32,000 nucleotides of DNA, taken from the NCBI GenBank assembly GCA_008080745.1, contig SHMX01000003.1, positions 240,001 to 272,000 on the forward strand. Reading direction: 5' to 3'. Below the pieces are notes generated by a model that saw only the letters and a list, made by a program, of their open reading frames with translations, was not told where the DNA came from and made no database searches. This DNA comes from Candidatus Thorarchaeota archaeon (GTDB lineage Archaea; Asgardarchaeota; Thorarchaeia; Thorarchaeales; Thorarchaeaceae). A program made the position numbers and the translations under genes. Position 1 is the first letter of the stretch; each line of letters begins with the position of its first letter. This document shows, one piece after another, positions 12,516-30,401 of this stretch.

Positions 12516-13052
12516 CTACCTTCCTTCAGAGGTCACGACTCTCTGGATTAACCATAGACTGTATACGGAAAAGAGTATAATTATACCAGCAATTCCAACA
12601 AGAGAACCTGAAAATCCAGGTACAATTGAATTACCTGTAGCTATTTGAACGATGATATCTGCAAGTGCAATAATAATCGAACCATACATTACGAAAAGGT
12701 TAGTCAAGCCACCATAACGAATCATTCTTCCCTCGGCCATCTTCCAAGCTTTTATGGCCATAACAGATCCTGCACCAACTATCACCATAAGAAAATACAG
12801 GCCAACTAAAGTCCATTTCCAATAATAGCTAATATCAGGAGGCATAAGAACTACCACAGCAATACCTATGATCGAGAGAATGAAAGTAACTTTGGGATAT
12901 GGGTCTGCTAAGAACTCTTTCCAGCGGTCCACTCTGGGTTGTTCATATGTTCTAACAGGTTCCTCATATTCATCTTCTTCTGCATCTGGAAAAGTTTCTT
13001 CATACTCTTCCTCTTCATATTCTTCATCAAAGGTGTCTTCGTCTGAAACCAT
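12516..13052 (-). CDS. Hypothetical membrane protein (~4 TM) with acidic N-terminal tail
   Basis: N-terminus DEDTFDEEYEEEEYEETFPDAEEDEYEE, then four hydrophobic segments. Its stop lies 6 nt before the MazG-like start. Confidence 0.8.
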   Translation of the reverse strand: MVSDEDTFDEEYEEEEYEETFPDAEEDEYEEPVRTYEQPRVDRWKEFLADPYPKVTFILSIIGIAVVVLMPPDISYYWKWTLVGLYFLMVIVGAGSVMAIKAWKMAEGRMIRYGGLTNLFVMYGSIIIALADIIVQIATGNSIVPGFSGSLVGIAGIIILFSVYSLWLIQRVVTSEGR

Positions 13053-18044: not shown

Positions 18045-19859
18045 TCAAGGAAGAGGATCCTCTTTTTCAATCCATTCTTTAAGAGCTCGAGCACATTTCT
18101 CAGTCATTCCCTCCACATCTGATAACTCCTTAATAGATGCAGAACGTACACCATCATAACTACCAAATTCTTTTAGCAGAGATGTTCTTCTTTTGAACCC
18201 GATACCAGGTACTTCTTCGAGGATAGAACCACTGAACCTTTTTTCTCTCAGCTTATGATGGTACTTCTGCGCAAATCTATGAGATTCATCACGCACGCGT
18301 TGAACCAAGTGTAACGCGGAAGAACTCTTATCCAACTCTATACCTTCGGGGTAATCTCTTGTAAAAAGAATTTCATCTTGTTTTGCCAATGAAGCAACTT
18401 GAAGGTATTCAAGGCCTAGAGATTTCAGCGCATCAAGTGCGACATTTAGTTGTCCTTTTCCACCATCAATGAGGATTAAATCGGGAAGTGAATGGCCTCG
18501 TTCAAGAACACCCCTATAACGACGATACACGACTTCTCGCATCATAGCATAATCATCTGGAGTTTCCTTAATCCGAATTCTGAACATGCGATACCATTTC
18601 TTATACGGTTCACCGTTTCTGAAGACGACACATGATCCTGTAGGGTCAGTACCCTGGATGTTGGCTATGTCAAAACCCTCAATATGCATGGGAGCACGAC
18701 TTAGACCTAATGCATCTTTCAGAGATTTTACGCCATTATCAACAATCTCCTCTTCAGAATCGCCCAAAATGAGTATCTTTCGTAGTGCTCGGAAAGCATT
18801 GTTATTTGCCATCTCAATGAGACCTTTCTCTTCATGTGTACGAGGAATTAGAATCTGAATTGTCCTTGAGGTATTTTCACTCAACCATTTACTCATCATC
18901 TTCATGCGTTTGATTTTCTGTGGAAGAAGAATATCATCAGGTAGTTGTGGAAGTGAGAAGTAATATTGTTCGACAAATGCAGTGAGAACTTCAGAATCGG
19001 GAGTATCAAGGCTTAGCTCGAAATAGAAATTATCTTGACCAATTAACCTACCACCGCGAATAATCAATAATTCAACAAGAGCCGCTTCTTCGGTTCGAGA
19101 TATACCAAGTACATCACGGTTCTTTCCATCTGGTGTATAGACTCCCTGTCTACGCATCATAATCTCAATGTCTGTCATTCGGTCCCTTATTTCAGCAGCT
19201 AACTCAAAATCGAGGTTTTCAGAGGCCCTGTCCCTTTTCGCTTCAAGAATCTTCAGAAGACTTTCCGCCTCACCATCAAGAAAGAAACACATCTGTTCGA
19301 CTAAAGAGCAATACTCATCTGTTGGGATATGATCTTTGCAGGGACCTGCACATCGTTCAAGATGATAATCCATACATGCACGTTTCACCCGATTTGGTTC
19401 TCTGCACATGGCAATAGGGATAAACTTGCGAACGGTATCAAGAAATTTCTCAAGTCGTTTAGAAGAACGATAAGGGCCGTAATATCGAGCGCCATCTTGC
19501 TTAAAATCACGAGTGACCTCAAATGTAGGAATATCAGATTGAATATCAACTCGAATCCAAGTACTTCGTTTATCATCTTTTAGAGCAATATTGTAGGGAG
19601 GCATGTGTTTTTTGATTAGCGTGGCCTCAACAATCAGAGCTTCTTTCTCGGTCCTTGTTACAATAGTTTCCAAGTCACTTGCTCGCTTCATAAGCTCCCA
19701 AGTCTTTCGGTCAAGTCCCTTGGTCCGAAGATAAGAACTTACTCGCTTTCGAAGAGCTTTGGACTTGCCAACATATAGAACCCTTCCGTCCTCGTCTTTC
19801 CATAAATAGACCCCCGGATCAGTTGGTAGATCTTGAACAAGAGAGGTGAGATCGGACAT
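18045..19859 (-). CDS. uvrC: Excinuclease ABC subunit C
   Basis: GIY-YIG (PGVYLW...LYVGKS), Cys-rich region, UVR motif (LDFELAAEIRD), RNase H-like GFDIA/DDY/DGGKGQ, and HhH (VPGIG). Confidence 0.96.
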   Translation of the reverse strand: MSDLTSLVQDLPTDPGVYLWKDEDGRVLYVGKSKALRKRVSSYLRTKGLDRKTWELMKRASDLETIVTRTEKEALIVEATLIKKHMPPYNIALKDDKRSTWIRVDIQSDIPTFEVTRDFKQDGARYYGPYRSSKRLEKFLDTVRKFIPIAMCREPNRVKRACMDYHLERCAGPCKDHIPTDEYCSLVEQMCFFLDGEAESLLKILEAKRDRASENLDFELAAEIRDRMTDIEIMMRRQGVYTPDGKNRDVLGISRTEEAALVELLIIRGGRLIGQDNFYFELSLDTPDSEVLTAFVEQYYFSLPQLPDDILLPQKIKRMKMMSKWLSENTSRTIQILIPRTHEEKGLIEMANNNAFRALRKILILGDSEEEIVDNGVKSLKDALGLSRAPMHIEGFDIANIQGTDPTGSCVVFRNGEPYKKWYRMFRIRIKETPDDYAMMREVVYRRYRGVLERGHSLPDLILIDGGKGQLNVALDALKSLGLEYLQVASLAKQDEILFTRDYPEGIELDKSSSALHLVQRVRDESHRFAQKYHHKLREKRFSGSILEEVPGIGFKRRTSLLKEFGSYDGVRSASIKELSDVEGMTEKCARALKEWIEKEDPLP

Positions 19860-19934
19860 ATTCAGTATTCTCCTACTAAGGTATTTGCATTGTACCTATG
19901 TAAGCATAGACCTTTTGGTACAACCGAGGTGTTT

Positions 19935-22793
19935 TCAACTCAAGGGACCATACACAACTTCCGGACCATAAAGAACAGCTCTGAGATGGTTGCCAGTATA
20001 GGATTCTACAACCTCACTCAGTTCCTCAGGTGTCCCTGTAGCAATAACGGTTCCCCCACCAATTCCCCCTTCTGGACCCAAGTCAATCAAATGGTCTGCT
20101 ACTTTAAGGACATCAAGATTATGCTCAATAATGATGATTGAATGGCCAGCATCTACAAATCGATTCAGCACACGGAGCAGAGTATGGATATCAGATGCAG
20201 ATAGACCAGTTGTTGGTTCATCAAGGATATACAAAGTTGGCTCTAAATTTCGTCGCCATAGCTCTGAAGCGAGTTTCATTCTTTGTGCCTCACCACCAGA
20301 TAGTTGTGTTGCTGGTTGGCCCAATTGAAGATATCCTAAACCAACATCAACCAAAGTCTGGAGACGGTCTGCAATCTTCGGAATATCAGAGAAGAATTCT
20401 AGTGCTTCATCAATTGTCATATGTAAAACTTGAGAGATATTCATTCCCTTGTATTCAACCTCAAGCGTTTCACGATCAAATCGTTTACCCTTACATGCAT
20501 CACAGGTCATGAAAACATCACTCATGAAGTGCATCTCTACTCTGATGACACCACTACCACGACATTTGCTACATCGACCGGATCGTGTGTTAAAACTAAA
20601 CCTACTTGGAGTATAGCCGCGTTTCTTTGCCTCGGGCATTTTCGCAAATAGTGAACGAATATGATCGAAGGTTTTGGTATAGGTTGCAGGGTTTGATCTG
20701 GGAGTCCGGCCGATACTAGATTGATCTACCAAAACAAGACGTTCAATGTGCTCCACACCTTCTATAGAATCGTGAGTACCAGGAGTAGTACTTGCGTTGT
20801 TGATTTCTCTAGCAAGCGTTTTGTAGAGTGTTTCATAAACTAACGTACTCTTTCCGGAACCGGATACTCCAGAACAGCAAATCAACGTCCCGAGAGGAAA
20901 TTCAACATCGATACCTTTCAGGTTATTTTGTCGAGCATTTCTAACCCGAAGTACTTTACCATTTCCTTTCCTTCTTTTTTCCGGTACAGGAATCTGTTTC
21001 TCACCAGCGAGATATTGAGCAGTTAGAGACTTGGGATGGGTGAGTACTTCTTTAGGACTACCAGAAGCAACAATTTCACCACCATGACGCCCCGCTAATG
21101 GTCCTAAATCAATGATATGGTCTGCTGCTGAAATGGTATCTCGATCGTGTTCAATAACTACAACCGTATTACCCAAGCTTCTTAGATTATAGAAGGTCTC
21201 AATCAGTCTATTGATATCACGAGGATGCAATCCAATACTCGGTTCATCTAGACAATATAGTACACCAGTAAGAGCGGATCCAATTTGAGTTGCAAGACGA
21301 ATACGTTGACTCTCACCTCCAGATAATGTGCGGGATAGTCTATCCAGATTGAGATATTCTAGTCCAACAGCCATGAGAAATTTCAGTCTTGCTTTTATCT
21401 CTTTGAGAATGAGATTTGCAATCTTCATCTCCCGTTCTGATAATTCAATTGATTCAAAAAATTTTAGAGCTTCCTCAATGGTCAATGAAGTTACTTTGTC
21501 AATGGACATATTGCCAACTGTAACTGCGAGGCTTTCAGGACGCAATTTTCTTCCATCACAATCTGAACAAGTAGTCTGTCTAGTGAAATTATCAGCAATA
21601 TTTTGAGCCCGTCGCCTATACCATGATTTATCGCTTGAATTCCCCTCTGCAAATACCCTTTTGAGCCAAGGAATGATACCAAGCCAGGCACGGGTCACCT
21701 CCCAGGAGGTTCCATCTTCTTTCTCACGTCCATATGTGATGTCTATAGGTGGGTCGCCCCAAAGCAACATTCTACGGTGTTTTTCCGAGAGTGCAGAAAG
21801 AGGAGCCTCTTTTGAAAAACCAACGATATCGGCTAAAGAGTCGATTCGTCTCATCAAATATCTTCTATTCTCAAAAGCTCTCTTTGCGATTTCATGTACA
21901 GTCATGCTCTCCTTGGGGATAACCAAATCAGGGTCAACATCCATCGTAATTCCTAACCCATTACATTGAGGACAAGCACCATCAGGACGATTATAGGAAA
22001 ACATCTTTGGGTTAAGTTTTTCATACTGCACTCCACAATAGGGACACATCAAACGTTCAGCAAAGGTCAGATCTTCCTTTCCTTCTCGGGATACAATAGC
22101 GGACCCATCACCTGTTTCAAGAGCGGTCTCTATAGACCCAGTTAATCTCTCTCGATATTTATGACTAAGTTCCAACCTGTCAACAACCACATCGATATCG
22201 TGCTTCTTACGACCATCAATTTCCACCGAGTCGATATCTATTACTTCACCATCAATACGTACCCTTACAAATCCATTCTCTAGTAGACTCTGGAGAACAT
22301 CTTCGTGAGTCCCAGGTTCATCCCGAACCACGGGTGCCAAAATTAGTATCCGTTCACCACCGTTGTCTTCTAGCAATACCTTTGCCGCTGATTCAGGTGT
22401 AAGCTGTTCCATGGCACGCCCACATTCAACACAGTGAGGAATTCCAATATTCGCGTAGAGAAGACGTAGATAATCCTGAATCTCTGTACTTGTCGATACT
22501 GTGCTTCTAGGGTTCTTAGACCTACCTTTCTGTTCGATAGATATTGCTGGTGGAAGTCCTGTGATGCTCTGAACCTTCGGTTTGTCCAGACGACCAAGAA
22601 ATCTCCTAGCGTAGGATGAGAGGGACTCAACATACCTTCTCTGCCCTTCAGCAAATATGGTGTCAAAGACAAGAGTACTTTTCCCCGAGCCTGATGGTCC
22701 AGTAACAACAACCAGACGATCCCGAGGAATATCAACATCAATGGCCTTCAGATTATGTTCTTCCGCCTTTCGTACAGATATGAAACCGGTCAT
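19935..22793 (-). CDS. uvrA: Excinuclease ABC subunit A, second paralog
   Basis: Two Walker A motifs (GPSGSGKS, GVSGSGKS), two LSGGE signatures, zinc-binding CxxC modules, UvrB-binding and insertion domains. 952 aa. Confidence 0.95.
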   Translation of the reverse strand: MTGFISVRKAEEHNLKAIDVDIPRDRLVVVTGPSGSGKSTLVFDTIFAEGQRRYVESLSSYARRFLGRLDKPKVQSITGLPPAISIEQKGRSKNPRSTVSTSTEIQDYLRLLYANIGIPHCVECGRAMEQLTPESAAKVLLEDNGGERILILAPVVRDEPGTHEDVLQSLLENGFVRVRIDGEVIDIDSVEIDGRKKHDIDVVVDRLELSHKYRERLTGSIETALETGDGSAIVSREGKEDLTFAERLMCPYCGVQYEKLNPKMFSYNRPDGACPQCNGLGITMDVDPDLVIPKESMTVHEIAKRAFENRRYLMRRIDSLADIVGFSKEAPLSALSEKHRRMLLWGDPPIDITYGREKEDGTSWEVTRAWLGIIPWLKRVFAEGNSSDKSWYRRRAQNIADNFTRQTTCSDCDGRKLRPESLAVTVGNMSIDKVTSLTIEEALKFFESIELSEREMKIANLILKEIKARLKFLMAVGLEYLNLDRLSRTLSGGESQRIRLATQIGSALTGVLYCLDEPSIGLHPRDINRLIETFYNLRSLGNTVVVIEHDRDTISAADHIIDLGPLAGRHGGEIVASGSPKEVLTHPKSLTAQYLAGEKQIPVPEKRRKGNGKVLRVRNARQNNLKGIDVEFPLGTLICCSGVSGSGKSTLVYETLYKTLAREINNASTTPGTHDSIEGVEHIERLVLVDQSSIGRTPRSNPATYTKTFDHIRSLFAKMPEAKKRGYTPSRFSFNTRSGRCSKCRGSGVIRVEMHFMSDVFMTCDACKGKRFDRETLEVEYKGMNISQVLHMTIDEALEFFSDIPKIADRLQTLVDVGLGYLQLGQPATQLSGGEAQRMKLASELWRRNLEPTLYILDEPTTGLSASDIHTLLRVLNRFVDAGHSIIIIEHNLDVLKVADHLIDLGPEGGIGGGTVIATGTPEELSEVVESYTGNHLRAVLYGPEVVYGPLS

Positions 22794-25666
22794 TATTCAA
22801 CAGCCTCCATTTCTAGAACCTCACGGAGGTAGATACCAGTATAGGACTCACGGGTTTCTGCGACAGTTTCAGGAGTACCTTCTGCAACAAGATATCCACC
22901 TTCATCGCCGCCTTCGGGTCCAAGATCTATTACCCAATCAGCTGTCTTGATTACGTCCATCTGATGTTCAATCACAAGTACTGTATTCCCCAGATCAACC
23001 AGTTTATGAAGCACTTCGAGAAGTTTCTTGATATCAGCAAAATGTAAGCCTGTTGTAGGCTCATCTAACATAATCAAAGTTTGTCCCGTTGCGGGTCTTG
23101 AGAGAAACTTGCTCAATTTGATTCGTTGTGCTTCTCCACCCGATAGGGTTGTAGCGGGTTGTCCAATTTTTACATAGCCCATTCCTACATCACATAATGT
23201 TTGTAATCTCTTTTGGATGCGGGGGACATTCTCAAAGAATTTTAGTGCTTGATCAATTCGCATATCCAAGACGTCAGCGATATTCTTTCCCTTGTATCGT
23301 ACTTGAAGGGTCTCGCGATTATATCGTCTACCTTTACAATCGCTACATGTGACCTGAACAGGGGGTAGGAATTGCATCTCAATCTCCTCAACGCCTGCAC
23401 CTTTGCACTTTTCACATCGGCCACCTTTAACATTGAAGCTAAATCGACCCTTTTTGTAACCTCGAATCTTTGATTCAGGAAGACTAGCAAAGAGCTCACG
23501 AACAGGAGTCCATAACCCAACATATGTAGCAGGATTAGAGCGTGGTGTCCTTCCAATTGGACTCTGATCAATAACAATTACCTTGTCAAGTTGGTCAACA
23601 CCCTCCAGGCCATCATGATCACCGGGTTTTGCTTCAGCGCGATGAAATTCTCTTGCTAAAGCTCGCTGAAGAGTTTCAACTATCAAGCTTGACTTTCCGC
23701 TTCCGGAAACCCCAGTAACTGAAATGAATAAGCCTAAGGGAATATTTACATCTATATTTTTCAGGTTGTTATGACGGGCACCCTTGATTTTCAGGATTCG
23801 ACCATTTGGTTGTCTTCTCTCAGAAGGAATGGGAATTTGTAAAACACCTCGAAGGAACTGAGAGGTGATAGACTCCTTGCTCTCTAGAATCTCTTCAAGA
23901 GTTCCAGCAACAACTAGTTCTCCACCTTCAGACCCTGCCCCGGGACCTAGGTCAACAATATAATCAGCGCTCATCATGGTTTCTTCGTCATGTTCTACCA
24001 CTAATACTGTATTACCCAAATCGCGCAGACGCATAAGAGAACGTAGAAGTCGTTTGTTATCCCTGGCATGAAGACCAATAGATGGTTCATCACAGACATA
24101 GGTGACACCTACAAGATTGGAGCCAATCTGACTTGCCAGTCTAATTCTCTGTGCCTCTCCTCCAGAGAGACTTGGAGCTCCTCGGTTCAGAGTGAGGTAT
24201 TCCAATCCGACCTCCTCCAGAAAACCAATCCGACCTCTAATCTCACTAAGGATTGGTTCAGCCACAGGTTGATACATCTCATCAACTTCTACATCATCAA
24301 AGAATTCGCTCAATTGTTTGATTGACATCTTGTCGAGCTGGTTAATTGATAATCCATTGAATCTGACAGACTGTGCCTCGGGTCTCAGACGAGCACCATT
24401 ACATACTGGACAGGGCTGTTCAGACATGAGGGATTCGAACTCTCTTCTTCTACCCGCAGATTTTGTTTTTTCATAGAGTCGTTTTGCAGTATTCACTATT
24501 CCTTCATACTGTCGAGTATAGGTTCCAGAATACGATACTTTCCAATCCTCATTACCACCCTCCCAAGAGAATACAAAATCACCCTCAGCGCCATAGAGGA
24601 TGAGATCTTTATGTTCTTGAGGTAGTTCACTCCACATCAGACCGAAGTTAATTCCAAATCTCTCCGATAGACGAGATTCCCAATTATCAGCCCATTTTCC
24701 CATTCCGCGAAATGCATTGAGTTCTCGTAACACGACAGAGTGGTCGGGTACAAATAAATCCGGATCAAAATCACGTATCACACCAATACCCGTGCATCTC
24801 TCACAGGCACCTTGTGGAGTATTCCAAGAGAACATACGAGGTTCCATTTCAGGGAGGCTGATTCCACAATCAGGACAAGCCAAGAATTCGGAAAGAGTGA
24901 TTTCATCATCGTCAGTAACAATTGTCACAACACCATCCGCCATATTCAAGGAAGTTTCTACAGCCTCGGCAATCCGACTACGTTGTGATGTATCATTTTG
25001 TACTCTATCAATGATTACTTCAATAGTATGCTCAAAATATCGGTCCAGAGATAACCCGTCATGAATGTCAATTATCTCACCATCGACTCTCGCACGAATG
25101 AATCCCTTCTGAATTAGCTCCCTGAACTCCTTTCGGTATTCACCTTTACGTCCACGAACAATGGGTGCGAGAATCATGATTTTTGTGTCTTCGGGGAGAT
25201 TTAGTACACGATCAACAATCTGTTGTGCAGTCTGGGGTTCTATTCTTCTATCACATTTGGGACAATGTGGAACACCTACTCGAGCATACAAAAGTCTAAG
25301 AAAGTCATAGATTTCTGTAATAGTGCCAACTGTGGAACGTGGATTCCTGCTAACACTTTTCTGATCGATGGAGATGGAGGGTGAGAGACCTGACATATAG
25401 TCAACTTTCGGTTTTTCCAGCATACCAAGAAATTGGCGAGCATATGCACTTAGAGACTCCACAAATCGACGTTGTCCCTCGGCAAAGATTGTATCAAACA
25501 CAAGGCTACTTTTACCTGAACCCGATACACCAGTCACAACTGTGAGTGTATCTTTAGGAATCTCAACATCAATATGTTGGAGATTGTGTTCCGCTGCCCC
25601 CAATACTACTATTGATCGGGGGCCATATGTTGGCTCTTGTTTTTTGCTTGTAGTCTGTGTCTTCAC
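22793..25666 (-). CDS. uvrA: Excinuclease ABC subunit A, first paralog
   Basis: GTG start 2 nt after the uvrB stop. Two GVSGSGKSS, two LSGGEAQR, DEPSIGLH/DEPTTGLH, TPRSNPATY. 957 aa. Confidence 0.96.
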   Translation of the reverse strand: MKTQTTSKKQEPTYGPRSIVVLGAAEHNLQHIDVEIPKDTLTVVTGVSGSGKSSLVFDTIFAEGQRRFVESLSAYARQFLGMLEKPKVDYMSGLSPSISIDQKSVSRNPRSTVGTITEIYDFLRLLYARVGVPHCPKCDRRIEPQTAQQIVDRVLNLPEDTKIMILAPIVRGRKGEYRKEFRELIQKGFIRARVDGEIIDIHDGLSLDRYFEHTIEVIIDRVQNDTSQRSRIAEAVETSLNMADGVVTIVTDDDEITLSEFLACPDCGISLPEMEPRMFSWNTPQGACERCTGIGVIRDFDPDLFVPDHSVVLRELNAFRGMGKWADNWESRLSERFGINFGLMWSELPQEHKDLILYGAEGDFVFSWEGGNEDWKVSYSGTYTRQYEGIVNTAKRLYEKTKSAGRRREFESLMSEQPCPVCNGARLRPEAQSVRFNGLSINQLDKMSIKQLSEFFDDVEVDEMYQPVAEPILSEIRGRIGFLEEVGLEYLTLNRGAPSLSGGEAQRIRLASQIGSNLVGVTYVCDEPSIGLHARDNKRLLRSLMRLRDLGNTVLVVEHDEETMMSADYIVDLGPGAGSEGGELVVAGTLEEILESKESITSQFLRGVLQIPIPSERRQPNGRILKIKGARHNNLKNIDVNIPLGLFISVTGVSGSGKSSLIVETLQRALAREFHRAEAKPGDHDGLEGVDQLDKVIVIDQSPIGRTPRSNPATYVGLWTPVRELFASLPESKIRGYKKGRFSFNVKGGRCEKCKGAGVEEIEMQFLPPVQVTCSDCKGRRYNRETLQVRYKGKNIADVLDMRIDQALKFFENVPRIQKRLQTLCDVGMGYVKIGQPATTLSGGEAQRIKLSKFLSRPATGQTLIMLDEPTTGLHFADIKKLLEVLHKLVDLGNTVLVIEHQMDVIKTADWVIDLGPEGGDEGGYLVAEGTPETVAETRESYTGIYLREVLEMEAVE

Positions 25667-25668
25667 GG

Positions 25669-27648
25669 TTACTTACCCTCGACCTTTTTTCTCAGCTCAA
25701 TAATCTGATCTCTAAGACTAGCAGCCTTCTCAAACTCTAGATTTCGGGCTGCTTCTTTCATCTGCTCCTCTAAATCAATAATATAATCCTGAATTTCCTC
25801 CAGCTCAACCTCATCAAATTCACTTAGCTTAGATTGAAGGTCCTTATCACGAGAGGACATGCCCTGTGCAATGTCTGTAATATCCTTCTGAATTGATTCA
25901 GGTGTGATTCCATGTTCGTCGTTGTATCGAAGTTGGTAGACACGCCGCCGATTTGTTTCATCGATAGCAGCCCGCATGGCGTTTGATACATGATCTGCAT
26001 ATAGAATGACGCTTCCATGCACATTTCGTGCCGCTCTTCCCATGGTCTGAATGAGTGCCCACTCACTCCTCAAGAAGCCCTCTTTATCGGCATCAAGAAT
26101 AGCTACTAATGAAACCTCAGGTAGATCAAGTCCCTCTCGAAGTAAGTTTATGCCAACGAGTACATCGAACGTTCCAAGTCGTAACTCTCGGATAATCTCT
26201 ATACGCTCCACAGTTCCAATGTCTGAGTGCAGATATCTTGCTCGAACTCCATTCTCTACAAGATATTCAGTAAGCATCTCGGCGGTCTTCTTCGTTAGTG
26301 TAGTTACTAGAACGCGTTCGTTTCGTTTGACAACAACATCAATCTCAGACATAAGGTCATCAATCTGATTCTCTATAGGACGTAAAGTAATTTCAGGATC
26401 AATAAGACCTGTAGGACGTACGAGCTGTTCTACAATCTGTTTGCTGTGTTTCTTTTCGTAAGGTCCCGGAGTTGCTGTAGTGAAGATAACATGTTTCATA
26501 TACTTCTCGAATTCATCAAAGCTCAAGGGTCGGTTATCATAAGCTGATGGCAAACGAAAACCATAGTCAACTAGACTGGTCTTTCGAGCTCTATCTCCAT
26601 GATGCATTCCTTTTACTTGTGGTAGGGTCATATGACTCTCATCAATAATCATCAAGAAGTCATCAGGGAAATAATCTAGCAATGTATATGGTTTCTCACC
26701 CTTCTGCCGTCCATCAATGTATCTGGAATAGTTCTCAATCCCCGAACAGAATCCTGTTTCACGAAGCATCTCAAGGTCATACAATGTTCTTCTCTTGATT
26801 CTATCAGCCTCTATGAGCTTCCCCTGTTTTCTGAACTCCTCCACCCGTTCATACATTTCCTGCTCAATCAAGTCGATTGCATCTTCAACCTTTTCTTGTT
26901 GAGTCACATGATGACGGGCGGGGTAGATGCGAACCCAAGTGTCCTGCCCCTGGTTAGACATTGTGACAGGATGATGATATGATAACCGTTCCACCTTATT
27001 CCCATCTAATTGAATTCTATATGCACTTTGTGAATAGCCAGGTATAATATCTATAACATCACCACGGACCCGAAACACTCCGGGCTTAATCTCCATATCA
27101 TTGCGTTCATATTGCATAGCAACTAAATTTTCGAGGATCTCCCGGCGATCAATCTTATCGCCGACATTCAGAAAAAGAGAGAGTTTTCCATAATCTTCAG
27201 GATTGCCGAGGCCATAGATACAAGAAACGGATGCGACGACTAATACATCATCACGACTCAGTAACGACATTGTGGCTGAGTTGCGTAGCCGTTCTATCTC
27301 ACGGTTTATGTCGGTTTCTTTCTCAATATACATGTCCTTACTTGGTACATAAGCTTCTGGTTGGTAGTAGTCATAATAACTGGTGAAGTATTCAATGGCG
27401 GCATCAGGGAAATATCGTTTGTATTCAGAAGCAAGTTGGGCAGCAAGTGTCTTATTATGTGAAACGACCAGAGTAGGGCGATTATATGCCTCAACCACGT
27501 TAGCTACGGTAAAGGTCTTTCCTGAACCAGTGACCCCTAAAAGGGTCTGTTTGTCAAGACCAGATTCTAATCCTTCAATCAAATTTTCGATAGCTTTCGG
27601 TTGATCACCTGTGGGCTTAAATGGGGCATCTAGTTTGAAATCTGACAT
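25669..27648 (-). CDS. uvrB: Excinuclease ABC subunit B
   Basis: GVTGSGKT, YYDYYQPEAY beta-hairpin region, DESH, GINLLREGLD, QTMGRAARN, C-terminal UVR motif LEFEKAASLRD. Confidence 0.97.
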   Translation of the reverse strand: MSDFKLDAPFKPTGDQPKAIENLIEGLESGLDKQTLLGVTGSGKTFTVANVVEAYNRPTLVVSHNKTLAAQLASEYKRYFPDAAIEYFTSYYDYYQPEAYVPSKDMYIEKETDINREIERLRNSATMSLLSRDDVLVVASVSCIYGLGNPEDYGKLSLFLNVGDKIDRREILENLVAMQYERNDMEIKPGVFRVRGDVIDIIPGYSQSAYRIQLDGNKVERLSYHHPVTMSNQGQDTWVRIYPARHHVTQQEKVEDAIDLIEQEMYERVEEFRKQGKLIEADRIKRRTLYDLEMLRETGFCSGIENYSRYIDGRQKGEKPYTLLDYFPDDFLMIIDESHMTLPQVKGMHHGDRARKTSLVDYGFRLPSAYDNRPLSFDEFEKYMKHVIFTTATPGPYEKKHSKQIVEQLVRPTGLIDPEITLRPIENQIDDLMSEIDVVVKRNERVLVTTLTKKTAEMLTEYLVENGVRARYLHSDIGTVERIEIIRELRLGTFDVLVGINLLREGLDLPEVSLVAILDADKEGFLRSEWALIQTMGRAARNVHGSVILYADHVSNAMRAAIDETNRRRVYQLRYNDEHGITPESIQKDITDIAQGMSSRDKDLQSKLSEFDEVELEEIQDYIIDLEEQMKEAARNLEFEKAASLRDQIIELRKKVEGK

Positions 27649-27885: not shown

Positions 27886-28602
27886 CTAGTTCTCTTTTTC
27901 TAGTGGAGTTTTATTTTCTTCAGATTCTTTCATGAAGAAAGTAAGCAATAAGACATACCCAACCATGGGCAGAATAAAGTTGAGTGTGACACTTAGAAAG
28001 TATATGATTCCCATACTAAGAGCTAAGATTATCCAAGCAAAGGGAAACAAAACGAGATACCTTCCTAAAAATTTGGTAAGCTTTGGATCTGTGGTCTTCC
28101 GATAGATTTCGAGAAAAGCCCGCCCAAGAATAATAAATCCACTAAAGAATAGTATCATACTAGAAAGTGCAAGAAACATGGATTCGGGATCTGTAGGGGT
28201 ACGTACTGCAAAAGAAAAAAGAGAATATAGGAATATTAAGAGCCCACTAGCCACAAAAAGGTCTTGATTATGCTCATTTCTCAAATGAATTAATGCTGCG
28301 AACAAGAGAGATGATCCAACAATAAACGCAATTTTGAACAGAATGGTATGAATTAGAACCCCTGTGAAAAAGAATACAAAATAAGAAGCGGAATCAATCG
28401 TGATTAAAACCATTACACCAAGTGTACCCCAAAGCATCGATTCGTTCCTTGAAGTTGAACCCTTATCACAATCAGGACATATCACTATCCCATTGACTGT
28501 TAGTTGACATTCCTCACAGATCGGACGAGTACACCGATTACAGGCAAAAGGTGTTTCTCTATCGGGGTGATAGTAGCAGGATACCATTATGATTTGCTCC
28601 AA
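27886..28602 (-). CDS. Membrane protein with N-terminal B-box-like zinc finger
   Basis: CYYHPDRETPFACNRCTRPICEEC...CPDC followed by about 6 TM segments. The start may be ATG 28587. Confidence 0.82.
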   Translation of the reverse strand: MEQIIMVSCYYHPDRETPFACNRCTRPICEECQLTVNGIVICPDCDKGSTSRNESMLWGTLGVMVLITIDSASYFVFFFTGVLIHTILFKIAFIVGSSLLFAALIHLRNEHNQDLFVASGLLIFLYSLFSFAVRTPTDPESMFLALSSMILFFSGFIILGRAFLEIYRKTTDPKLTKFLGRYLVLFPFAWIILALSMGIIYFLSVTLNFILPMVGYVLLLTFFMKESEENKTPLEKEN

Positions 28603-28732: not shown

Positions 28733-29161
28733 ATGCCACATTTCGGTCTAATCCCTCATGGTCTATCTCCAAAAGAAGAGCTTATGTTTAGAGCTAAGCT
28801 TCATGTTCGAGGAGGAAGGATAAGATATGAACGAGGGGAGATTCCGGATGCTATTGCTGCATTCTATGACTCATTTATTTCTGCAATGCGGAGTAAAGCG
28901 ATGGATCACTCTGACAAGATAGATGATAGTGATGATGAAAAGGAACTCTTCAATTTTCTTAGAGAAAAGGGAATAATCAACTCATTCACAGAAGACGACT
29001 TTGAATCATTCCAAGATTTACTTGATAGGGCATTTAGGAACGTTGTTGTATCCCAAGAGCTTGGAAATTTTCTTGATACCTTTAATCGGGTGATGTCTGA
29101 ATTAGGGGTTATCCCCATCAAAGATGGAGAACTCCCTGAGGAACAATCGGTCACGCTATAG
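28733..29161 (+). CDS. Hypothetical alpha-helical protein
   Basis: 142-aa ORF with ATG start and protein-like composition. Overlaps the convergent gene by 11 nt. Confidence 0.75.
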   Translation: MPHFGLIPHGLSPKEELMFRAKLHVRGGRIRYERGEIPDAIAAFYDSFISAMRSKAMDHSDKIDDSDDEKELFNFLREKGIINSFTEDDFESFQDLLDRAFRNVVVSQELGNFLDTFNRVMSELGVIPIKDGELPEEQSVTL

Positions 29162-30401
29162 CATCTTTTCCAAGAGTAAATTTGAAAAATGACCTGAATC
29201 TATGTTCGTAATCACCCAATACAATGATATGATGATTAGCAATTGATTGCTTCAGAAAGTATTCTATTGGTTGATGCATTTTGATTCGAATTTGTGTCCT
29301 GCATCCATCCTCGTTTTCCTGATTGTCTATAATAGTTCCTTTGGAAACCCAATAATCAGTTAGATCAAACCCACCGACTTTTACAATGGTAACTTCTTGA
29401 GGTTTGAATCTACCTCTTATTGCCACACTTGAATCGGTCTCGAAATGTGTTACCAAATCGTGCGACTCCACCATACTTCTAGGGAGTGTACAATGAGCAA
29501 AAGTTGTAGTATTTTCTTCTTCATCAACTGCAATAACATTAGCCATAAATGATGGGTTTCCAGTGAGTAGTTTCACGATGAACATAGTAAAGGTTGAAGG
29601 AATATCTCCCTCGCAACCCGCCACTAAATCTTCTCGTTCATTAAGTACAGATAGAGCGTTACAAGCTGTAACTCCAGTTCCTTCGAATAGTGAAAAACAT
29701 TGGATTGTCAATGCATCAATCTTTTCTAGTGAGAGAATATTTTCAAGTCCGTTCAATACTCTGATTGATTGATTTACAGACTGCCTAGATACTTCAACTT
29801 GTTCAGCATTATTCAAAAAAATGTCAAGAGAATCTTTACTTGATTCATCATAGAGAGATTGAGAGATAACCTCTAAATCAAAGGGGATAATCTTCATGCC
29901 CCAATTCTTTTCAACAGTTCTGTGTTCTACTTCTGACGCAATCAGCCATGAGGACGGTTCTCCAACGACTAACATCTTTGATTCTTTTATTCTAGAAACT
30001 ATCTCTGTAAAGTCAACCCAAACTTCCAGTTGTTCTACTAGTTCCTCCAAAGTACCATGAACAATCTCACCTTCTAATTCCTCCTTCTGAAGGTAAGCTC
30101 TAATCTCCATTGATGCGGGCAGGGAATTATTGCTAGGATGACTGAATAGAATAATTGATTCAGGAGGAGATATTTCTTCTAGGAAATCTTTTACATTTTG
30201 TTCAGTACCTCCCGTTCCAATGAATAGGTATAGTCGTTTCCCATAACTTCGATCAGAAGAAAAACGAGATGTGTATTCTTTAGCAGAATAGAGTTGAACA
30301 CCATCTATAGCAATCTTTTCAGATATATTGGATACAACCTCATCGGGAGCGATAATTGAGAAGAAAGTAATTATTGGAAGAGGCATGCAAATATGTGCCA
30401 T
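29151..30401 (-). CDS. L-fucose/L-arabinose isomerase-like family protein (substrate unknown)
   Basis: GCEGDIP, FAHCT, THFE, CRTQ and NHHIIVLGD motifs typical of the FucI/AraA C-terminal family. Confidence 0.8.
   Translation of the reverse strand: MAHICMPLPIITFFSIIAPDEVVSNISEKIAIDGVQLYSAKEYTSRFSSDRSYGKRLYLFIGTGGTEQNVKDFLEEISPPESIILFSHPSNNSLPASMEIRAYLQKEELEGEIVHGTLEELVEQLEVWVDFTEIVSRIKESKMLVVGEPSSWLIASEVEHRTVEKNWGMKIIPFDLEVISQSLYDESSKDSLDIFLNNAEQVEVSRQSVNQSIRVLNGLENILSLEKIDALTIQCFSLFEGTGVTACNALSVLNEREDLVAGCEGDIPSTFTMFIVKLLTGNPSFMANVIAVDEEENTTTFAHCTLPRSMVESHDLVTHFETDSSVAIRGRFKPQEVTIVKVGGFDLTDYWVSKGTIIDNQENEDGCRTQIRIKMHQPIEYFLKQSIANHHIIVLGDYEHRFRSFFKFTLGKDAIA

Follow-up and report, generated by a model that had tools for sequence, protein, structure and literature searches.

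UvrA, the damage sensor of nucleotide excision repair (NER), has solved full-length class I structures that are homodimers (G. stearothermophilus 2R6F/3UWX, T. maritima 3PIH, M. tuberculosis 3ZQJ/9GA2-5 and the Ct-UvrA 9GXK series), and its ATP sites form within one chain, not across the dimer (PMC7835731). It has yet to be settled how the symmetric UvrA2 switches to a pre-incision complex that is asymmetric and has a single UvrB on the damaged strand (PMC11985968, PMC7835731). Class II UvrAs function outside NER and have neither the UvrB-binding domain nor the first Zn module (PMC9328131), and two uvrA genes in one chain have been described for Planctomycetes (PMC8567305, Fig. 13). Here, we report on a stretch of 32,000 nucleotides (nt) of Candidatus Thorarchaeota archaeon DNA (contig SHMX01000003.1 of GCA_008080745.1, positions 240,001-272,000; hereafter the window), which holds a uvrB-uvrA-uvrA-uvrC cluster with two full-length UvrA genes, uvrA-a and uvrA-b, whose products are referred to as Aa and Ab. 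Judging from sequence comparison, this pair is most likely a split variant of the known, uncharacterised double UvrA, which in this Asgard lineage lies within a complete uvrB-uvrC operon. We further consider it somewhat probable that coupled translation of the two genes would provide a 1:1 Aa·Ab heterodimer, which would replace UvrA2 as a fixed asymmetric sensor and thereby be the equivalent of a fused double UvrA.

Two complete UvrA proteins from overlapping genes

The four genes of the cluster and the junctions between them are as follows (window coordinates).

25669-27648, minus strand: uvrB, 659 amino acids (aa), first gene of the cluster; NF003673 1024 bits against a cut-off of 743
22793-25666, minus strand: uvrA-a (Aa), 957 aa, GTG start; N-type full-length class I UvrA module
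19935-22793, minus strand: uvrA-b (Ab), 952 aa; C-type full-length class I UvrA module
18045-19859, minus strand: uvrC, 604 aa; TIGR00194 549 bits; GIY-YIG, UVR, RNase H-like and HhH domains
25664-25671, minus strand: uvrB stop/uvrA-a start, TAA-CC-GTG, a 2-nt gap, read directly
22790-22795, minus strand: uvrA-a stop/uvrA-b start, TAATGA, in which TAATG (22791-22795) is a 1-nt overlap, read directly
19860-19934, minus strand: uvrA-b/uvrC spacer, 75 nt, with AGGAG before the uvrC ATG, read directly

The initial annotation of the window, made from the letters alone, had the uvrA genes overlapping by 1 nt and uvrA-a starting 2 nt past the uvrB stop, and direct reading of both junctions confirmed this arrangement. 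GAGGG lies upstream of the uvrA-a GTG start and GGAGG upstream of the uvrA-b start. Because the codon that follows the uvrA-a TAA in frame is TGA, this genome retains the ATGA overlap of most relatives.

Aa and Ab are 49% identical across 945 aligned residues, from end to end. Both exceed the cut-offs of the UvrA equivalog models, with 1395.8 (Aa) and 1330.2 bits (Ab) for NF001503 (cut-off 1147) and 1333.8 and 1284 bits for TIGR00630 (cut-off 729.8), and both match PF17760 (UvrB-binding domain) and PF17755 (insertion/DNA-binding domain). A pattern check located two GxSGSGKS Walker A motifs, two LSGGE signatures, two DEPxxGL Walker B motifs and two xEH H-loops in each copy, together with six CxxC pairs that make up three Zn modules. 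All eight motif sets are canonical, and neither protein contains a degenerate ATP site. Small deviations are a His to Ser change in the distal D-loop of 17/19 Ab proteins and a Ser to Ala change in signature I of 17/21 Aa orthologues, the Aa of this genome keeping its Ser. Pfam, NCBIfam and motif checks thus bear out the earlier description of two full-length UvrAs that each have a UvrB-binding domain, an insertion domain, Zn modules and both ATPase sites.

In domain set and motifs, Aa and Ab resemble the canonical class I homodimer, and each aligns end to end with every solved full-length class I UvrA chain. Unlike that homodimer, there are two different protomers here, each with clade-fixed changes at wedge, hairpin-tip or interface sites that are near-invariant in single-copy UvrAs. 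The class II paralogues (D. radiodurans UvrA2 2VF7, DrrC and Ecm16 7SH1) are alike in being extra UvrA-family genes in a genome, but they are missing the UvrB-binding domain and first Zn module that Aa and Ab keep. Since this domain and its flanking CxxC pairs are retained in both copies, Aa and Ab are by sequence class I-type UvrAs and not class II. Heterodimeric ATP-binding cassette (ABC) proteins such as the TM287/288-type exporters offer a parallel in the idea that paralogous halves can replace a homodimer and fix its asymmetry; those heterodimers, however, have one degenerate ATP site, whereas the sites of Aa and Ab are all canonical.

Conservation of the pair in Thorarchaeaceae

The genome is a Thorarchaeota metagenome-assembled genome of 3.16 Mb in 19 contigs, 98% complete, and the only public runs that hold this DNA, two DNA runs of one study that may be the source of the assembly, come from marine sediment. 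Within this 98%-complete genome, no further UvrA-like gene above 50 bits was detected, and uvrB is single-copy. As the genome is without another UvrA, any NER of this organism must, on the assembled sequence, run on the Aa/Ab pair, which would therefore not be an accessory.

UvrA genes were then scanned for in 41 relatives and in 332 Asgard genomes. Nearly all genomes of the family to which this one belongs (Thorarchaeaceae, f1) have two adjacent full-length UvrA matches, the exceptions being fragmented assemblies. The order uvrB-uvrAa-uvrAb is identical in 18/18 whole loci of the family, which represent 16 genera. In most of these loci uvrAa and uvrAb overlap by 4 nt (ATGA), and in two, those of this genome and a congener, by 1 nt; the uvrB/uvrAa junction is equally tight. 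The distance to uvrC is variable in relatives, from a 4-nt overlap up to ~1.3 kb. A genome from a second family of the same order (G025) has the same tandem, interrupted by a contig end. Among the complete loci fetched, none has one copy without the other, and no fused open frame was found in the family, in which no frame exceeds ~1020 aa and a conserved stop splits Aa from Ab in all loci. Because the pair is kept in every complete locus of the family, its retention is far beyond chance. Failure of the tandem pair to be conserved in relatives had been set as a point of refutation in the initial annotation; the pair is present across the family and the order, and so this refutation fails.

Both copies are under strong, equal purifying selection. 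In the comparison with a genome of the same genus, synonymous sites are saturated and nonsynonymous divergence (pN) is 0.075 for Aa, 0.079 for Ab, 0.061 for UvrB and 0.114 for UvrC; branch lengths summed over 16 genomes are 3.86 for Aa, 3.84 for Ab and 3.52 for UvrB. A weak test of whether the evolutionary rates of UvrB, Aa, Ab and UvrC covary, over 29 branches, gave an Aa-Ab correlation (r 0.32, p 0.09) that was no higher than that of other pairs.

Relationship to fused double UvrAs

Fused double UvrAs are known and common. In the Asgard families f5 and f20, single frames of 1916-1972 aa each contain two complete NF001503 matches, and a search limited to long proteins returned at least 7999 proteins of 1667-4760 aa that match Ab at E<=1e-50. 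Their records belong to Armatimonadota, Planctomycetota (among them the isolate Tundrisphaera sp. TA3), “Asgard group”, “Heimdallarchaeota” and Bathyarchaeia, and all carry the plain annotation UvrA. When 16 of the long proteins were checked with BLASTP, the N-terminal module was full-length in 16/16 and the second module in 14/16, the shorter second modules belonging to P0121 and P0117. NCBIfam also holds a Chlamydia-type UvrA model of 1809 positions (NF001885), and the Asgard fusions fall below its cut-off (1349-1389 against 3054 bits). The split, coupled class I pair is real, but the rarity that the initial annotation implied for it was overstated, since two-module UvrA is widespread as a fusion (PMC8567305). 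Our literature search found no paper in which the class I UvrA of Thorarchaeota, or of archaea at large, is described as a tandem or a heterodimer.

The fusions share with the Thorarchaeota pair two complete, non-identical class I-type modules that form one genetic unit in the same module order, and their second module also loses the RKGE lysine of the UvrB-binding domain, as Ab does. They differ in being one chain of ~1900-2300 aa, whereas the Thorarchaeota modules are two polypeptides from overlapping genes. Moreover, the Thorarchaeota pair sits between uvrB and uvrC, while no uvrB or uvrC was found within ~4.5 kb of the Asgard fused genes fetched (loci L136, L151 and L152; families f5 and f20).

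In order to place the two copies, trees were built from the Thorarchaeota pairs, the fused halves, Asgard single UvrAs, and bacterial and methanogen UvrAs. In a FastTree phylogeny of 81 rows, Aa grouped with the N-halves of one fusion type (Shimodaira-Hasegawa-like support 99) and Ab with the C-halves of the same proteins (83), and the internal order of the two groups was mirrored. For the second fusion type (Armatimonadota/Tundrisphaera), the N and C halves came out as sisters of each other (99), suggesting that it arose by an independent duplication. Under the IQ-TREE LG+C20 PMSF model, support was 97 for Aa with the N-halves and 89, unstarred, for Ab with the C-halves, with a third divergent paralogue inside the latter group; in a tree of 52 rows the corresponding values were 97 and 43. 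Across the trees, the placement of Ab is the weak one. The Aa to Ab gene order equals the N to C module order. In addition, Ab and the C-halves of the same fusion type share seven lost universally conserved columns against 1.2 expected, as well as P768S and Q534P. Strict counts of shared derived residues were uninformative, at no more than 1 for every pairing. On the basis of the trees, the shared lost columns and the matching gene and module order, we read the Thorarchaeota pair with moderate confidence as a split or pre-fusion state of the double UvrA.

The third paralogue is a very divergent full-length UvrA-like protein of 944-974 aa, which is present in some Asgard genomes (L138:4492-7416, G006; L139:3274-6108, G015; L154:4455-7316, G093) but is absent here. 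Its sequences make up a separate clade (100), which one tree places close to Ab and the C-halves. The protein has lost 81/346 of the universally conserved columns, including the wedge (Y62/Q65/F66 to T/T/M) and the RKGE loop of the UvrB-binding domain.

Residue differences between Aa and Ab

Conservation was judged against the 346-347 columns whose conservation across 82 single UvrAs is 90% or more. Each copy retains 93-94% of these columns; 22 of 346 are lost in Aa, 24 in Ab and 2 in both (about 1.5 shared losses expected). The wedge and dimer-contact sites that are discussed below are referenced to Ct-UvrA, in which the ATP-binding-I dimer contacts are R54, Y55, S58, A63, F66, L67, G80-I85, L507, M508 and V510, and in which a DNA “wedge” of Y62, Q65 and F66 lies at the dimer centre (PMC12796330). 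The corresponding features of the two copies are listed here.

24914-25234, minus strand: Aa UvrB-binding domain, residues 145-251 (PF17760, E 5.9e-37), with an intact RGRKGEY at 25136-25156
22086-22391, minus strand: Ab UvrB-binding domain, residues 135-236 (PF17760, E 5.5e-30), with RDEPGTH (22305-22325) at the RGRKGEY position
25430-25444, minus strand: Aa wedge YARQF, equivalent to Ct-UvrA Y62/Q65/F66, canonical
22599-22613, minus strand: Ab wedge YARRF, with Gln replaced by Arg (R65) in 19/19 Ab against 1/82 single UvrAs

One distinction is found in the UvrB-binding domain. Here N1 and C1 denote the halves of fusion type 1, and N2 and C2 those of type 2, the apparently independent duplication. 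K174 is kept in 82/82 single UvrAs, 21/21 Aa, 8/8 N1 and 7/9 N2 modules, and in 0/19 Ab, 4/8 C1 and 0/9 C2 modules; the third paralogue is also without it. By these alignments, the loss of K174 is a recurrent asymmetry between first and second modules. The RGRKGEY loop as a whole is universally conserved in single UvrAs, lies outside the predicted interface with UvrB domain 2, and is lost specifically in the second modules of every double-UvrA lineage.

Further differences lie in the wedge, the dimer contacts, the Zn3-hairpin tip and elsewhere. At cross-protomer contact sites of Ct-UvrA, Aa has F55 and S84, and Ab has Y55, P82 and R65, each fixed in at least 95% of its clade, while single UvrAs have S82 in 81/82, A84 in 77/82 and R65 in 1/82. 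The tip of the Zn3-hairpin carries L767M and P768S in Ab and D769P in Aa. In Aa only, E854, which 82/82 single UvrAs and all other module types keep, is replaced by Phe or Tyr (15 Phe and 6 Tyr in the clade; Phe here, 23105-23107), and the nearby Y865 position (23072-23074), before Walker B-II, is Ile or Leu; these two replacements may be a correlated change. An enrichment of substitutions at the published dimer interface was looked for and rejected, as 1/14 positions is changed in each copy, equal to background. Thus 13/14 conserved interface positions are kept in each copy, with loss at the background rate of the whole protein.

As Ab has the eroded loop, docking of its UvrB-binding domain on UvrB was modelled by complex prediction with UvrB 152-252 and Ab 118-250, using alignments of 19 rows each and 3 controls. 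The predicted complex of the Ab UvrB-binding domain with UvrB domain 2 scored 0.70 against 0.03 for the best control, a mark reached by 58/80 solved complexes and 2/110 mismatched pairs. Runs agreed in at least 88% of contacts, and partner predicted local distance difference test (pLDDT) values were at least 81. The model shows Ab keeping the canonical predicted UvrB interface (Ab 171-176, 204-208 and neighbours), although, because a like complex (3FPN) is solved, this agreement shows likeness and not binding. A variant in which the heterodimer would have a single UvrB site by virtue of the eroded Ab domain was dropped, as the eroded loop (Ab 157-163) is outside the predicted interface and the canonical contacts are kept.

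How the two proteins may act together

In the arrangement that we favour, the overlapping stop and start codons would give about equal amounts of Aa and Ab, which would pair through their ATP-binding-I domains to form Aa·Ab in place of the UvrA2 homodimer. This complex would scan DNA and recruit UvrB at either of its two UvrB-binding domains, after which UvrB and UvrC would take over. It would be permanently asymmetric, with the Arg wedge, the altered Zn3-hairpin tip and the eroded RKGE loop on Ab, and E854F/Y and Y865I/L on Aa; that this asymmetry has a functional consequence is something we infer. The heterodimer is favoured because the genome has no other UvrA, because the two copies are strictly co-conserved with an overlapping stop and start, and because they are under equal constraint. 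It is also favoured because two such modules have repeatedly been fused elsewhere, with recurrent differences between the first and second module, and because the cross-protomer differences are fixed in each clade.

Several results weigh against this arrangement. Homodimers are compatible with both sequences, neither of which has lost anything needed for acting alone; with interface losses at the background rate, and with every ATPase motif and Zn module intact in each copy, the sequences permit homodimers and heterodimers alike. A “complementary motif erosion” between the copies was considered and rejected, with 2 shared losses against 1.3-1.5 expected (Aa 18-22, Ab 21-24) and no domain-level pattern. 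In approximately unbiased (AU) tests on the 52 rows, neither a single clade of Aa and Ab (p 0.18) nor, under LG+G4, a single clade of N-halves and C-halves (p 0.39) was rejected, and the orthology of Aa and Ab to the fused halves is, from these sequences, not proven. Finally, no biochemical study of a double UvrA, fused or split, was found in the literature searched. The heterodimer proposed in the initial annotation therefore gains support from the fused double UvrAs of other Asgard lineages and of bacteria, while the retention of catalytic and nearly all interface residues in both copies keeps the proposal conditional.

A possible but rather unlikely alternative is that Aa and Ab form two separate homodimers, Aa2 and Ab2, which would use the same UvrB and UvrC, be tuned to different lesions or DNA contexts, and be co-transcribed merely as NER genes. 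Both copies are complete and catalytically canonical, with interface residues almost fully conserved in each, and the UvrB-binding domain of Ab is still predicted to dock on UvrB, all of which would suit two independent sensors. The Arg wedge and Zn3-hairpin tip of Ab and the changes particular to Aa could reflect lesion preferences, and bacteria with UvrA and a class II UvrA2 provide a precedent for specialised paralogues (PMC9328131). However, separate homodimers would not account for a stop/start overlap that is kept across 16 genera, for copies that are never apart or for identical evolutionary rates, and the repeated fusion into one chain in other lineages would force the modules together.

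A free mixture of AaAa, AbAb and AaAb dimers, giving a broader damage spectrum, appears improbable. At the ATP-binding-I contacts the two copies have near-identical residues, and nothing enforces a choice of partner; such a mixture is nevertheless hard to square with selection for tight 1:1 coupling and with the fused single-chain forms, and the clade-fixed differences at contacts 55, 82 and 84 suggest some tuning of the interface. Redundancy, in which one copy works and the other is a dispensable or decaying spare, might draw on the loss from Ab of the universally conserved RKGE loop of the UvrB-binding domain, but it is very improbable given that both copies retain 93-94% of universally conserved columns, occur in every complete locus of the family and have a pN of ~0.08 each with synonymous sites saturated.

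If Aa and Ab do form a heterodimer, a stronger form of this proposal would be that Aa·Ab is an obligate asymmetric UvrA whose protomers have fixed, different roles, and that double UvrAs, whether fused or split, are a mechanistically distinct class of NER sensor that evolved more than once. We regard this extension as speculative and fairly unlikely. The roles of Aa and Ab would then match the “recognition” and “support” protomers, or the UvrA2UvrB1 intermediate, that are transient in homodimeric UvrA.

A natural sensor built from two different protomers, if true, would make it possible to mutate the wedge, the ATP sites or the UvrB-binding domain in one protomer alone; a homodimer rules this out, and a 2000-aa fusion makes it awkward. 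The pair probably also represents the widespread double UvrA in split form, within a complete uvrB-uvrC operon of Asgard archaea.

Neighbouring genes and other UvrA types

The neighbours of the cluster, a PLD-like protein, an amino-acid permease and unannotated open reading frames (ORFs), are unrelated to repair. The flanking ORFs at 27886-28602, 28733-29161, 29151-30401 and 12516-13052 (238, 142, 416 and 178 aa) had no Pfam match at E<=1e-5.

Class II-like UvrAs were also encountered during the Asgard scan. Single proteins of this kind, ~830 aa long, occur in many Asgard genomes. Double class II-like proteins of ~1620-1643 aa with two partial UvrA matches (model positions ~250-942 and ~403-939) were seen at L147:3452-8326 (G001) and also in G006, G010, G015, G093, G107, G118, G167 and G188, and look to be without UvrB-binding domains. 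This genome has neither the single nor the double form. In two other Asgard genomes, full-length UvrA matches contain one in-frame stop each (TGA in G293:C4:346633-349443 and TAA in G153:C759:5296-8157), and these may be pseudogenes or assembly errors.

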